Assembly: GCA_016213935.1 (NCBI GenBank)
Contig: JACQZG010000006.1
Span: forward strand, 60,622-124,621
Length of the DNA stretch: 64,000 bases
DNA from: Nitrospirota bacterium
Lineage (GTDB): Bacteria > Nitrospirota > Thermodesulfovibrionia > UBA6902
Reading direction: 5' to 3'
Shown: piece by piece, positions 35,943-44,203 of the stretch
Position numbering within the stretch: position 1 is the first letter of the stretch
How the letters are laid out: every line of letters starts with the position of its first letter
Translations under genes and position numbers: made by a program
Notes under the pieces: generated by a model
Databases searched by the model: none
Told to the model about the DNA's origin: nothing
What the model saw: the letters and a program-made list of their open reading frames with translations, nothing else

Positions 35943-36118
35943 AAAAGGGGCAGGGAGTTAATTAACCATGCAAATTCAAAGAGTTTTAACCTCAAGCGTA
36001 GAGATAGGTAATCGGTAAATGTATCTTAACTTTTGCTGACCTATTTTTTTATTGCCTTAACAGAATAGGAAGATATATAATTTCAAAGCAAACAACCTTA
36101 TCATATCGGACGGGATAT

Positions 36119-36613
36119 TTGTCCGATCTTTCACTACCAGATACAGAGGTTAATGATTTTCTTGCGAAGAAGAAAGAGATTGACGGCAAGATAAAATGGA
36201 AGAATAAGGGGAAGGCATATCTTGAATGGTCTTCCATATTGATAGATGAAGATGGAATAAGTATCCCTACGGCACGGATTATCTTGACGTCAAATCAGGA
36301 TGAAGAACTTTACAAGTTTACTTTTGTACTGGATTATCGCGGACAGAATATAAGACGGCTTGATATTGATGATACGCATAGAAGGACAAATCCTTCTACA
36401 TGTCCAGAGTATCCGGGCGTAAGGATAACAGGTAATCATTTGCATGTGTGGAGTCAGGATAACGGGATCAACTGTGTTGTTCCAATTGATATTCCGGCAC
36501 GGAACAAAACACATCAGGGGTGGTTTGAATTTTTTCTCAATGATGTAAAATTAATATATAATAATGAACATATCGCTCCACCCTTGACGAAGAGTTATCC
36601 GAGGTTATTTTGA
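36119..36613 (+). CDS. Hypothetical protein (164 aa by the track; start uncertain), first gene of the island
   Basis: AT-rich ORF with a GNHLHVW His-rich segment; no family recognised; its stop overlaps the next ORF's start. Confidence 0.4.
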   Translation: MSDLSLPDTEVNDFLAKKKEIDGKIKWKNKGKAYLEWSSILIDEDGISIPTARIILTSNQDEELYKFTFVLDYRGQNIRRLDIDDTHRRTNPSTCPEYPGVRITGNHLHVWSQDNGINCVVPIDIPARNKTHQGWFEFFLNDVKLIYNNEHIAPPLTKSYPRLF

Positions 36614-37398
36614 TGCTGGATTGCGTAACTATAAAAAGTAATATCAGCACGGCGCTTGGGAAGAGATTTGAATGTATTCCTCTTTCCCATTCCCTTGTTA
36701 TAAATACTCCATTTACCTATCCCAATCTTGATTCCATACAGGTATTTATTGAAACCTTGCCGAATGGTGAACTTGTTATCTCAGACAAAGGTGAAACTCT
36801 CAGATACCTTGCATCGTTTCTGATAGACGCTGAAGACACCCCTCATAAAATGAATCTCCTTAAATCCGTCACATCATCATATGGCACTGACTTCAAAGAA
36901 GGGATATTCTACAAATACAGCAATGAGAACCGTTTCAGCGACGACATCCTGAACATGGCCAATACAATTTTAAGGATAAGCGATCTACAGCTTGCTCAGA
37001 GGGTCAAGAAACCACGAAATGATTTTTATGCGCAGGTTGAGGAACTCATCAAGGAAATTGTTCCGGTCAAAGAAGAAATTGAAAGACGAACCGCGCTTGA
37101 AGGCAAGTCCGGCAAAAAATATCACGCAACTTATTTTGTTAAAAAAGAGAATACAATTATAGAGCCTCTTGCGCATCCTTTTCAGGCGGTTGACTGGACA
37201 AAAATTGCAAGTGTATTTCAGGAATTTTATGATCTTAAAAATAAGGCAGAGATGAATTATAGTCTCTATGCCATATTGGATGATGAAGAAAACGACTGGC
37301 CTGAAGAGCCGAAGATATTGCTTACTGATGTCTCGAAGATACTGCTTTGGAGTAGAAGGAAGCAGTGGAAGGATAAGATTTTGAAGAAAGCGGCATAG
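36610..37398 (+). CDS. Hypothetical protein (262 aa), translationally coupled to the preceding ORF
   Basis: ATGA-type overlap with the upstream ORF; no family recognised. Confidence 0.5.
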   Translation: MMLDCVTIKSNISTALGKRFECIPLSHSLVINTPFTYPNLDSIQVFIETLPNGELVISDKGETLRYLASFLIDAEDTPHKMNLLKSVTSSYGTDFKEGIFYKYSNENRFSDDILNMANTILRISDLQLAQRVKKPRNDFYAQVEELIKEIVPVKEEIERRTALEGKSGKKYHATYFVKKENTIIEPLAHPFQAVDWTKIASVFQEFYDLKNKAEMNYSLYAILDDEENDWPEEPKILLTDVSKILLWSRRKQWKDKILKKAA

Positions 37399-37576
37399 AA
37401 TTGAAAACTCTATTGCGCAGGGGAATGTGCAAAATTATAGACTCTCTCTATCTGCTTTTATGCCTGAACGGGATATTCAGGGGTTATTCAAGTAGATACC
37501 CACGGGCAAGCCCGTGGAACTCTGCTTTGAATTAGAGCTTACTTTATTAAATCAATTCTAAATACCAAAGGAGGGT

Positions 37577-38542
37577 TTGAACATGAATAGAACGCTACTA
37601 TCATTTATGAGCATTATTATTGTCATCTTTTTGATGGGAATGGCTTCAAATAAAAATGTTCCTGAGAAACCTGCAACTGTTAGGATTGGTTATTTAAATA
37701 TAGTAGCGAGTCTGCCTCTTTTCGTTGCTGAGGAAAAAGGCTTTTTTAAGGAGGAAGGCATAGACTACAAAACATCCCCTGTTGCTACAAGCAATCAGCT
37801 TGTTGATGCAATCGTAGCAGACAACTTAGACTGTTTTATCGAATCATCCGCCATTCCGGTATTGGCTGTGGAGTTGCAATCACCGGGAAAGTTGAAGGTC
37901 TTCTCAGTAAGTGAAATAACATCTAAAGCTCCTTTTGATTCACTACTGGTAAAGGAAACCTCAACTATAAAGACGTTATCCGATCTTAAAGGGAAAAAGA
38001 TTGGTGTCTTCCCCGGGTCTACCGCAACAAATCTTCTAAAAAAATATCTTAAAGATAAAGGAATAGATATTTCTACAATTACGTTCATTCCGATGCCTCC
38101 ACAAAATCATTTGACAGCACTTGTGGAAGGCTCTGTTGACGCGCTCCATGCCTATGAACCTACAACAGCTATTGCATTATCCAAAGATGGTTTTAAACAG
38201 TTATACGGCTCTATCTATGCTGATATGATTTCACCTAATCCTCAGGGAGTCGCAGCAATAAGCACGGCTTTCTCACAAAAATATCCGCTGACTACTGCAA
38301 AGGTGATTCGTGCTTTGGAGCGTGCTATGATCTTCATGAAGGAACATGACGAAGAGACACGTCAAATCTTAATGAAAAGGTTAAATCTGCCCGAGAACGC
38401 TACAAAGCGTACAGTTTTTCTGTATATGCTCCCACACAAAGAAATTAACCTTTCTATTTTCCAGCAATACGCTGATATGCTGACTGATATTGGTGAACTC
38501 TCTGGACATGTAAATGTCAAAGAGCTTCTATATAATAAATAA
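37577..38542 (+). CDS. ABC transporter substrate-binding protein, NMT1/THI5-like (SsuA/TauA/ThiY family)
   Basis: Signal/anchor sequence then IGYLNIVASLPLFVAEEKGFFKEEGID...KGKKIGVFPGSTA, typical of NitT/TauT-type binding proteins. Confidence 0.75.
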   Translation: MNMNRTLLSFMSIIIVIFLMGMASNKNVPEKPATVRIGYLNIVASLPLFVAEEKGFFKEEGIDYKTSPVATSNQLVDAIVADNLDCFIESSAIPVLAVELQSPGKLKVFSVSEITSKAPFDSLLVKETSTIKTLSDLKGKKIGVFPGSTATNLLKKYLKDKGIDISTITFIPMPPQNHLTALVEGSVDALHAYEPTTAIALSKDGFKQLYGSIYADMISPNPQGVAAISTAFSQKYPLTTAKVIRALERAMIFMKEHDEETRQILMKRLNLPENATKRTVFLYMLPHKEINLSIFQQYADMLTDIGELSGHVNVKELLYNK

Positions 38543-38578
38543 AAAGTTTCGCACCCAGCAGAATATGAGGTCAAATTA

Positions 38579-42862: not shown

Positions 42863-43043
42863 TTCATGCAGCGTTCAGCGGATGTATCCGTGCCAGAGCC
42901 TTTTTATTCTCTTTTTGCGCAAGCCAGATATCAACGGCACGCTGGGCATCCAGCCGGAATTCAGGGGTATTGCCGAACAATAGAGACAGGCGCAAAGCCA
43001 CAGAAGGCGTAACAGCCCTGTGTTCCCGCAGGATTTCATTCAC
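42863..43043 (-). pseudogene. C-terminal remnant of a HigA-like (XRE HTH) antitoxin
   Basis: Minus-strand translation VNEILREHRAVTPSVALRLSLLFGNTPEFRLDAQRAVDIWLAQKE matches the C-terminal half of the HigA/VapI HTH; the upstream frame has no Met and hits a stop, so the N-terminal helices are missing. Confidence 0.45.
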
Positions 43044-43150
43044 TGTTAAACACGAATGGCTTGAGAAATAGGGTATAATTATAATCAGTTAAGAGGTAAC
43101 GTATGCAGACAGTGGACTTTAGACTATGGACTTAAAAACAGGAGGATCCC

Positions 43151-43405
43151 ATGGATAAACTTCTTAAGATAGACAAAACTGGTGATTCAAGACTTCTCAA
43201 GGAAATAAAGAAATCATTGGGCTTGAAACTTGATGATGAGCTCTTCTTGTTCAGCGGGAAAGATTATCTTGTAATTAAAAAGGTTCAGAGACCTTCCCTT
43301 TCAGCGCGTTTCAAGAGCCTCTCTGAAAAGGTGGAGAAACGATTTAAAAAAGAAGGGGTAAAGGAAGATGTAGTAGTTGAGGCCATTAAATGGGCAAGAA
43401 GGTAG
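43151..43405 (+). CDS. Putative antitoxin (AbrB/SpoVT/VapB-like) of a PIN toxin
   Basis: 84 aa, overlaps the downstream PIN gene by 16 nt; a swapped-hairpin-like N-terminus (KIDKTGDSRLLKEIKKSLGLKLDDELFLF). Confidence 0.5.
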   Translation: MDKLLKIDKTGDSRLLKEIKKSLGLKLDDELFLFSGKDYLVIKKVQRPSLSARFKSLSEKVEKRFKKEGVKEDVVVEAIKWARR

Positions 43406-43806
43406 TGCTTGATACGAATGTGTTTGTTTCAGCGCTGGGCTGGAAAGGAGCATCTCGAAATATTTTCAACAATTGCATTGACGGAGATTTGGAATTATTC
43501 ATTTCTACCGAGATATTCGATGAAATTAAAAGGGTCTTGAATTATCCTAAATTTAAGTTCAGTCAGGACGAAATTTCCGAGTTTTTGGATCAGATATTGG
43601 AAGCCGGCAATTTTGTTGAAACGAAGGTCAAGGTAGACATAATCAAGGACGATCCAAGTGATAACAAATTTCTGGAATGCGCGGCAACTGTAAATGCAGG
43701 CTTTGTTATAAGCAGGGATCCGCATATATTGAAAATTAAAGAGTTTGAGGGGATAAAGCTTATGTCTCCTGAAGATTTTACAAAGGCGGGGTATGGCGGA
43801 CGGTAG
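43390..43806 (+). CDS. PIN-domain toxin (VapC-like)
   Basis: MGKKVVLDTNVFVSAL...ISTEIFDEIKRVL... with conserved acidic PIN residues. Confidence 0.8.
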   Translation: MGKKVVLDTNVFVSALGWKGASRNIFNNCIDGDLELFISTEIFDEIKRVLNYPKFKFSQDEISEFLDQILEAGNFVETKVKVDIIKDDPSDNKFLECAATVNAGFVISRDPHILKIKEFEGIKLMSPEDFTKAGYGGR

Positions 43807-43978
43807 AGAAATGCAGAACTTGAAATCTTTACGGGAGGGAACAAAATCAGAAAAGACGCTGATATTACTAAAAAAGACATCGGGTGCATGGAGAGGGCTT
43901 GTTGATTCAGAGAAATTAAAACATGATATTTATTCAGACAGGCTTATATCAAGAAGACTACAGGACGTGAATGTTTAA
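43793..43978 (+). CDS. Small 61-aa ORF, possibly an orphan antitoxin-like protein
   Basis: ...ILLKKTSGAWRGLVDSEKLKHDIYSDR resembles the GxWKG motif of small addiction-module proteins; weak. Confidence 0.3.
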   Translation: MADGREMQNLKSLREGTKSEKTLILLKKTSGAWRGLVDSEKLKHDIYSDRLISRRLQDVNV

Positions 43979-44203
43979 CTTTTATTAAACGGCATAATCG
44001 CAGGCAGCGCTTACACCCTTCTCTCCCTTTCAGCACAAATTGTAAATACTATTGACATATTGTACGGCATGATTTAGGCCCGGCATTGCTTGTTTACGGC
44101 GGAGAGCAGGAGATGGTCAAAGGGAAAATAAAGGTACTTCCATGGAGGAAACTGTCTGCTTATTGAAACAAAACAGGGAAAAAAGAGATGATATTTTAAA
44201 CCT

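Follow-up and report, generated by a model that had tools for sequence, protein, structure and literature searches.

The selenocysteine genes selA and selB of a groundwater Nitrospirota bacterium are separated by 8,261 bp (35943-44203, hereafter the island) that form the subject of this analysis. The island lies within a 64,000-nucleotide stretch of a metagenome-assembled contig (the window). Both flanking genes are intact and tRNA-Sec (selC) begins 55 bp past selB. An earlier reading of the same DNA (the initial annotation) had placed the end of selA at 35942 and the start of selB at 44204, with tRNA-Sec directly after; Pfam, ARAGORN and Rfam gave the same coordinates, and searches with Pfam, NCBIfam and PADLOC reproduced the gene identities that it had listed for the island. 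The island can be divided into four or more modules, namely a PDC-M24-like candidate defence pair (module 1), a five-gene cassette (module 2), a vanZ-like gene with remnants of feoB and higA (module 3) and a PIN-domain toxin-antitoxin pair (module 4) (Table 1). The cassette occupies 4.4 kb (37577-41946) in the order binding protein, ATPase, permease, 'X-domain' protein and a 265-residue radical SAM protein. The initial annotation had recorded an ABC importer and, apart from it, a DUF4062/radical SAM pair. These genes are present, but they belong to one conserved cassette, whose permease carries an in-frame deletion of 67 codons in the window.

Table 1. Features of the selA-selB interval and its flanks (window coordinates; aa, amino acids; E, expectation value; GC3, G+C content at third codon positions).
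Feature	Position	Strand	Remarks
selA (L-seryl-tRNA(Sec) selenium transferase)	34551-35942	+	Left flank; intact; Pfam SelA E 4.9e-160; GC3 0.61
Left AT-rich spacer	35943-36118	.	G+C ~0.33; TTAACTTTT at 36026
Module 1 gene A, DUF6978-like/PDC-M24A-like, 164 aa	36119-36613	+	GC3 0.36; end overlaps gene B by 4 nt
Module 1 gene B, DUF1828/DUF1829, PDC-M24B, 262 aa	36610-37398	+	Pfam DUF1828 E 9e-14, DUF1829 E 1.3e-4
Module 1/2 spacer	37399-37565	.	GC-rich hairpin CCACGGGC..GCCCGTGG; L084 homology begins at 37566
Cassette gene 1, NMT1/SsuA-family periplasmic substrate-binding protein, 321 aa	37577-38542	+	Pfam NMT1 E 4e-25
Cassette gene 2, ABC ATPase, 253 aa	38579-39340	+	Pfam ABC_tran E 1e-31; 88% identity with L084
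Cassette gene 3, ABC permease, 181 aa	39337-39882	+	In-frame 201-bp (67-codon) internal deletion at 39660/39661
Cassette gene 4, N-terminal DUF4062 and ~200-aa X domain	39906-41147	+	Motif GEIWLFNNDL
Cassette gene 5, radical SAM, 265 aa	41149-41946	+	Pfam Radical_SAM; CX3CX2C; conserved C-terminal CxxCxxRH
Module 3 vanZ-like membrane protein gene, 132 aa	42044-42442	-	NCBIfam vanZ_1 E 6e-21, Pfam VanZ; GC3 0.53
Module 3 feoB 3' remnant (last 122 codons)	42421-42789	-	Gate domain only; GC3 0.54; overlaps vanZ start by 22 nt
higA antitoxin 3' remnant, 59 aa	42864-43043	-	NCBIfam antidote_HigA E 4e-11, profile positions 38-80 of 81
Module 4 small antitoxin-like open reading frame, 84 aa	43151-43405	+	Weak NCBIfam doc_partner, E 0.004; end overlaps PIN gene by 16 nt
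Module 4 PIN-domain toxin, 138 aa	43390-43806	+	Pfam PIN_3 E 1.2e-20; TIGR00305 70.6 (cut-off 29.15)
Putative open reading frame, 61 aa	43793-43978	+	Overlaps PIN gene end; no family match; TTAACTTTT at 43975 spans stop
Right spacer upstream of selB	43979-44203	.	G+C 0.38-0.47
selB (Sec-specific elongation factor)	44204-46099	+	Right flank; intact; Pfam GTP_EFTU, SelB beta-barrel, SelB winged-helix domains 2 and 3
tRNA-Sec (selC)	46154-46252	+	Intact; ARAGORN; Rfam tRNA-Sec 74.1 bits

The island differs markedly in composition from its surroundings. Its G+C content is 0.392 versus 0.481 (standard deviation 0.015, minimum 0.448) in 784 other 8,261-bp windows of the 64 kb, and at 200-bp resolution the value falls sharply at the selA stop codon and rises at the selB start. 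The GC3 of the majority of island genes is more than 6 standard deviations under the mean of 23 long host genes (0.604 ± 0.026), with values of 0.27-0.45 when vanZ and the feoB remnant are set apart. The tetranucleotide correlation with the host is 0.60 for the island and 0.71-0.83 for host segments of the same size. The G+C profile, tetranucleotide frequencies and GC3 all reveal a discontinuity and mark the island as foreign. The earlier description of the whole as AT-richer DNA holds for its sharp edges and mean, but not for the stretch with VanZ and the FeoB and HigA remnants (42044-43043), which at a G+C content of 0.44-0.53 is not AT-rich; the island is therefore compositionally mixed. 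By GC3, the M24 pair and the ABC genes (36119-39882) fall at 0.34-0.41, gene 4 and the radical SAM gene (39906-41946) at 0.27-0.31, vanZ and the feoB remnant (42044-42789) at a host-like 0.53-0.54 and the PIN gene at 0.45. Homology sets further borders. The closest copy of the cassette is that of contig L084, to which its DNA is related with identities of 87.5% (37566-39660), 92% (39661-39875) and 85% (41165-41944), and no similarity exists outside. Because the homology stops there, we regard the cassette as a discrete mobile unit with borders at ∼ 37566 and ∼ 41946. Such internal borders, together with at least four compositional or gene modules, are at odds with the single insertion that had been proposed.

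A SelA scan of 185,579 species-representative genomes yielded 80 loci, nearly all of them in Nitrospirota/Thermodesulfovibrionia metagenome-assembled genomes. In 41 loci selA is followed by selB in the same orientation, and the spacer measures 15-545 bp in 35 of these. Neither tblastn nor blastn found any island gene or island DNA in the 80 related loci. Since relatives have short spacers devoid of island genes, adjacent selA and selB are the ancestral state and the 8.3 kb of the window were inserted. The DNA between selA and selB is thus an insertion, as the initial annotation had supposed, and not an ancestral arrangement. An empty site could not be defined, the spacers of the relatives being alignable neither with one another nor with the window.

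Three relatives hold other genes at this position. The spacer of L009 (2.0 kb) contains a gene for a Zeta-toxin-like kinase, a ParE/RelB pair and a DndB fragment, that of L047 (1.0 kb) BrnT and a CopG-like antitoxin, and that of L073 (3.6 kb) PIN_3 and MazE with a deoxyribosyltransferase-like gene; the G+C content of each insert is below that of its own flanks. With inserts in these relatives as well, the spacer is a hotspot that repeatedly receives toxin-antitoxin and defence modules. The same conserved flanks enclose different cargo, or none, among the relatives, and the cargo comprises PDC-M24B, the PIN toxin-antitoxin pair and the HigA remnant in the window and the toxins and the DndB fragment in the relatives. 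The selA-selB spacer may be a clade-wide hotspot of this type.

Other features were seen in spacers of this collection. L003 and L012 have GC-rich palindromes resembling repetitive extragenic palindromic (REP) elements, e.g. TTTCCCCTCCCTTGACGGGAGGGGAAA, and the spacer is structurally variable in these two even without inserted genes. L037, L041, L049, L056 and L061, which belong to a more distant Thermodesulfovibrionales/Sulfobium group, have a conserved Cys-rich open reading frame of 102-116 residues (motif NCWEFKKCGRE..GG.H..DLG.CPA...; no Pfam match) that is always antisense between selA and selB and may be functionally tied to the sel genes.

These data are best explained by a horizontally acquired accessory mosaic of 8.26 kb, built up stepwise in a short spacer at which, in this clade, modules of the toxin-antitoxin and defence type tend to land; we give this interpretation a probability of roughly 0.78. 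The modules would probably arrive, or be exchanged, by recombination in or beside the conserved flanks, without a site-specific integrase. In line with the initial annotation, no recombinase family (integrase or transposase) was matched by Pfam, NCBIfam or PADLOC in the open reading frames of 36-49.8 kb. An integron cassette was considered and rejected: six of seven junctions fold no better than shuffled sequence in a search for attC, the remaining hairpin at ∼ 37.5 kb is a simple GC stem, and there is no intI. The insertion had also been called old and decayed. Some decay is visible in the feoB and higA remnants, but the age is unsupported, as the low-GC modules have not ameliorated; for the cassette, purifying selection and a probably recent permease deletion (see below) argue against the description.

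Several points weigh against the stepwise mosaic. The hotspot is supported by three of the 41 loci and the window. L001, the closest relative (selA 87% identical), has no selB downstream of selA, so that local rearrangement does happen in the group. No same-species genome with an empty site was available, and we judge how many events there were, their sequence and their age from composition and homology breaks only; the recombination mechanism is likewise one that we infer. Independent Logan contigs back only 35.9-36.08 kb and 39.66-41.17 kb of the metagenome-assembled window. Finally, the 9-mer TTAACTTTT occurs near both edges of the island (36026 and 43975) and, in tandem, twice in the 63-bp selA-selB spacer of L007, which is suggestive but weak; a short target-site relic may be conceivable.

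The initial annotation had pointed to the same 9-mer as a possible direct repeat. Its presence near both edges stands, but as an attachment (att) site it is not credible, and the repeat does not extend. The window contains four copies where ∼ 1 is expected, a number reached in two of 100 shuffles. A search for att-like sequences returned no flanking direct or inverted repeat beyond chance length. These results bear on the alternative that a tyrosine integrase placed a single island at selC, lost its gene later and left the insert to decay. The proximity of tRNA-Sec to selB, the atypical composition, the gene remnants and the repeat would all suit such an event, and the selC neighbourhood had been invoked as a classic integration hotspot. 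However, the insert is not at the 3' end of tRNA-Sec: it ends 1.95 kb before the tRNA gene, with an intact selB between the two. The 3' end itself (27 nt with ≤ 3 mismatches, 15 nt with ≤ 2 mismatches) occurs only once in the window, with no duplicate, and there is no remnant of an integrase. The presence of at least four compositional classes and a cassette with homology borders of its own also speaks against a single event. tRNA-Sec was looked for in 12 relatives and lies within reach of selB in L073 and L076 alone; the inserts of L009 and L047 occupy the same spacer without a tRNA-Sec nearby. The selC rationale fails on distance, the missing 3'-end copy and these two inserts, and we consider integration at selC very improbable, albeit slightly less so than the other alternatives. 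The selC pathogenicity islands of Enterobacteriaceae (LEE, SHI-2) are similar in placing foreign DNA near selenocysteine genes, but differ in their integration at the tRNA 3' end, P4-type integrase and direct repeats, none of which the window insert has.

An assembly or binning artefact, by which low-GC DNA from another organism was joined in, has a still smaller chance. In its favour, the source is metagenome-assembled, and Logan contigs break off at 36078 and precisely at positions 39661 and 41174. An artefact would, however, need two chimeric joins in one short spacer (15-290 bp in relatives) while keeping the ancestral order and orientation of selA and selB; moreover, the independent Logan contig L081 is identical to the window through 36078 and thus contains selA contiguous with 136 bp of the AT-rich spacer, and relatives have real inserts at this site. 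Exact-sequence look-ups returned no record of selB or VanZ, and short Logan contigs only for selA and the DUF4062 protein.

We attach equally little weight to a link between the cassette and selenium metabolism, in which the transporter would take up a selenium compound, or belong to the SAO type, and be co-regulated with the sel genes. SAO denotes the selenocysteine-assisted organometallic system, whose hallmarks are Sec or Cys at the gate of the permease and a CC motif in its binding protein (bioRxiv 10.1101/2022.07.06.499078). The cassette does sit inside a sel cluster, and SaoA and SaoP are the best NCBIfam matches of its ATPase and permease. The scores for SaoA, SaoP and SaoX (190.8, 86.6 and 41.6) nevertheless stay far from the NCBIfam cut-offs (360, 295 and 300, respectively), the genes lack an in-frame UGA, only one Cys and no CC motif occur in the binding protein, SaoL, SaoT, SaoC and SaoE are not present, and no other copy of the cassette is near sel genes. 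The connection was rejected on scores, motifs and context. Least probable of all is an ancestral arrangement whose genes were lost in the relatives: the host-like GC3 of vanZ and the feoB remnant and the missing selA-selB adjacency in L001 would agree with it, but the short spacers of 35 of 41 relatives with island genes in none, the GC3 of most island genes and the 85-92% identity of the cassette to a copy in an unrelated low-GC contig (L084) do not.

Core-gene-flanked hotspots for defence and toxin-antitoxin genes ('defence islets') are known in E. coli, Pseudomonas and Vibrio. The island is like them in its conserved flanks, variable toxin-antitoxin and defence cargo with remnants, atypical composition and, as often in islets, lack of an integrase. 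It is unlike them in its site, the spacer of a selenocysteine cluster of Thermodesulfovibrionia, which is occupied in 4 of 42 loci; we know of no report of this spacer as a hotspot. As an island it is thus an ordinary hotspot accessory islet, and the cassette is its novel part. The island shows that the sel genes of Thermodesulfovibrionia can accommodate toxin-antitoxin and defence cargo and acquire it time and again, with selA and selB becoming uncoupled; the spacer offers a handy marker for following the flux of accessory genes in uncultured groundwater Nitrospirota. Co-transcription of selA and selB is unlikely in the window because three minus-strand open reading frames intervene; selB is probably now transcribed on its own, starting in the right-hand part of the island or in the 225-bp spacer. 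Promoter and terminator scans were uninformative in this AT-rich DNA.

The binding protein of the window cassette is 90% identical to the L084 copy (NCBIfam SsuA_fam 143.5, cut-off 163.5) and the ATPase retains intact Walker A, signature and Walker B motifs. The permease has 181 residues, compared with 248-253 in all nine other cassettes. BLAST aligns its residues 1-103 with residues 1-103 of the L084 permease and residues 99-180 with 166-247; the deletion junction is seen in the DNA as well, and the alignment to the solved CmpB (PDB) and NrtB structures is broken at the same site. By analogy with the family, the deleted region would be expected to include the EAA loop for coupling to the ATPase. 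The window cassette has probably lost import through this deletion. Compared with L084, the ratio of non-synonymous to synonymous substitution rates (dN/dS) amounts to 0.09 (binding protein), 0.15 (ATPase), 0.14 (radical SAM protein) and 0.13 and 0.04 (the two halves of the permease), at dS values of 0.37-0.69. These low ratios (0.04-0.15) indicate that purifying selection acted on these genes during most of the time since they diverged; since both permease halves are included, the deletion is probably recent.

Gene 4 has no DNA similarity to gene 4 of L084, although the flanking cassette genes are 85-92% identical; judged from the sequences, it is a replacement relative to L084. Its DUF4062 domain has an N-glycosidase/TIR/deoxyribosyltransferase-like fold. 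The protein is extremely rare: a word search of 5.8e9 proteins gave only three matches, and only four relatives were found at E ≤ 1e-30 among 1.84e9 representative proteins. The radical SAM protein has ∼ 70 homologues at ≥ 40% identity, and C26, C30 and C33 are invariant in 18 homologues. A Logan contig from a sister sample (L083, 1,514 bp) is 100% identical to 39661-41174 of the window. It begins exactly at the permease deletion junction (39660/39661), spans the swapped gene-4 block and ends 9 bp after homology to L084 resumes. The position of its ends suggests branch points of the assembly graph, with cassette variants (deletion, gene-4 type) co-existing in the community.

The same five-gene order was found in at least nine unrelated contigs (L084, L085, L087-89, L090/L153, L091/L147, L093, L094, L149 and L151), which were located by radical SAM homologues at 55-83% identity and a metagenome scan; the order was judged where upstream DNA was available. 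L092 and L095 contain partial cassettes interrupted by contig ends. In L082, genes for a binding protein, ATPase and permease lie directly upstream of the DUF4062 homologue (44% identity). The G+C content of the cassette-bearing contigs ranges from 0.37 to 0.64, and the importer proteins (five copies compared directly) share 58-90% amino-acid identity across phyla. The neighbours vary between all copies: HigB, an M78 peptidase and AbiE in L084, a PDDEXK nuclease and TrwB in L085, an MmeI-type restriction-modification gene and feoAB in L149, and Vsr with a C5 methyltransferase in L153. In L087, a Planctomycetes genome, the cassette sits in a prophage with portal, terminase and serine recombinase genes, and in L147 a tRNA lies 0.7 kb upstream. 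Curated phage and plasmid collections contained only distant TIGR04100-type matches to the cassette.

Gene 4 is the variable element of these copies. Its X domain of ∼ 200 residues has invariant positions (G-x-IWL-x-x-x-DL, F, Y, Y, R, F), and a word-indexed profile search with X domains retrieved four proteins only. Three architectures occur: DUF4062-X, with DUF4062 at the N-terminus (window, L082 and L095); X-PNP_UDP_1, with PNP_UDP_1 at the C-terminus (eight loci); and anchor-X, which has no glycosidase domain (L093 and L151) and in which a hydrophobic N-terminal segment was judged by eye to be a putative membrane anchor. The gene-4 PNP domain matches the PADLOC models 'Effector PN-superfamily' and PDC-M60C, and the domains swap within a conserved operon. 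Downstream variation was also noted: L087 has two tandem radical SAM paralogues (5206-6837; 36% identical to each other), and in L149 (10749-11468) and L151 (10814-11518) the radical SAM gene is followed by an extra gene for an alpha/beta-hydrolase-like protein of ∼ 235 residues.

Each component has known relatives. The importer resembles NitT/TauT systems (SsuABC, TauABC, NrtABC/CmpABC, ThiXYZ) in the families of its binding protein, ATPase and permease and in gene order; it differs from them in that its NCBIfam scores are all below cut-off, that it is always linked to genes for an X-domain/N-glycosidase protein and a small radical SAM protein, that it occurs in mobile contexts and that the window permease is internally deleted. 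TIGR04038 (TatD-associated radical SAM) and TIGR04100 are the best family matches of the radical SAM protein and share its CX3CX2C core, but the TIGR04038 score (125.6) is below the cut-off (129.7) and the cassette protein has a conserved extra C-terminal domain of ∼ 95 residues ending in CxxCxxRH. A link to TatD was discarded, with no TatD gene or fusion in the island or listed beside any cassette copy. Through its DUF4062 or PNP domain gene 4 is related to nucleosidase effectors (TIR/DUF4062; PNP of CBASS, Detocs and PDC-M60C). Unlike these systems, the cassette has no cyclase, STAND NTPase or other known sensor and combines its glycosidase with an importer and a radical SAM protein, and the cassettes of L093 and L151 do without any glycosidase domain. 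Searches of the literature on DUF4062 with radical SAM, on TIGR04038 and on queuine-salvage analogues gave nothing specific. The five-gene cassette is widely transferred and is without prior literature or family description.

Because the importer and radical SAM genes are conserved, we propose one conserved small-molecule substrate that is imported and chemically transformed, and the glycosidase domains of gene 4 point to a nucleoside- or nucleotide-like target with an N-glycosidic bond. Most likely the cassette would import a nucleoside-like molecule, cleave its N-glycosidic bond and alter it by radical chemistry, for salvage or in conflict. No Rfam riboswitch was matched upstream of the transporter in the window or in 10 other cassette loci. 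Gene 4 diverges rapidly and swaps domains, the cassette is patchily distributed, and most of its neighbourhoods are defence-related or mobile; these features count against a plain metabolic role. A new type of conflict or defence system, one sensing or processing a small molecule that has been imported, would match the restriction-modification, Abi, toxin-antitoxin and prophage neighbours and the fast evolution and domain exchange of gene 4; alternatively, the cassette may be a mobile salvage pathway for a nucleoside-like compound. As a rough split, we allow a mobile uptake or salvage pathway somewhat less than an even chance and a conflict or defence system about one chance in three, the remainder going to other roles. 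A broader proposal is tentative and, on balance, doubtful: that the cassette is an undescribed mobile system composed of a NitT/TauT-type importer, an X-domain protein with a swapped N-glycosidase (DUF4062/TIR-like, PNP-like or none) and a new small radical SAM subfamily, and that, separately, the selA-selB spacer is a hotspot for toxin-antitoxin and defence genes throughout the clade. In either role, defence or salvage, the cassette is a concrete candidate for experiment.

The remaining modules of the island are smaller. In module 1, gene B matches PADLOC PDC-M24B (E 2e-33) over residues 10-258 of 262. The scores of gene A are weak (Pfam DUF6978 E 3.8e-5, 24.4 against a cut-off of 29.6; PADLOC PDC-M24A E 9.8e-4, 17 bits). 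The pair is therefore like PDC-M24 in its full-length gene B and its overlapping upstream partner, and unlike it in the marginal match of that partner; PDC-M24 itself is a candidate system only. Experiments have linked DUF1829 to defence solely within another architecture, DS-6B/HipAD (PMC13092281). In the spacer that precedes the cassette, the segment 37399-37548 folds significantly better than shuffled sequence (DNA fold z -3.28) around the core hairpin CCACGGGC-AAGC-CCGTGG; it has no Rfam match and may be a terminator or regulatory element. No significant structure was obtained by folding of the left spacer (35943-36118) or of the right spacer, and the latter has no homology to the spacers of relatives. 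The feoB remnant of module 3 covers positions 511-594 of the 594-position NCBIfam feoB profile and matches Pfam Gate. We suggest that vanZ, the truncated feoB and the truncated higA are what remains of previous occupants after subsequent insertions or deletions had cut into them. Module 4 has the arrangement of a type II PIN (VapC-like) toxin-antitoxin pair, in which a small overlapping open reading frame precedes the toxin; the antitoxin call for the 84-residue product is based mainly on this arrangement.

Some observations concern other regions. In L001 (10001-16841), selA is followed by genes for a TauE/SafE-type membrane protein, tRNA-Leu and pilB/pilT/pilC; as other genes replace selB there, the selA-selB link was broken independently by rearrangement. 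The upstream neighbours hisD-murA of the window are not present in L001. Elsewhere in the window, a small low-GC patch at 10246-11017 (G+C 0.38, GC3 0.30-0.39) with open reading frames of 138 and 103 residues and no family match is probably a further foreign islet. The AT-rich patch at 54900-56458 (G+C 0.34-0.36, GC3 0.21-0.24) is the most deviant of the window in composition and encodes open reading frames of 354 and 102 residues with no significant Pfam or NCBIfam match. A tmRNA gene at 5458-5796 (tag peptide ANTELALAA) is unrelated to the island.

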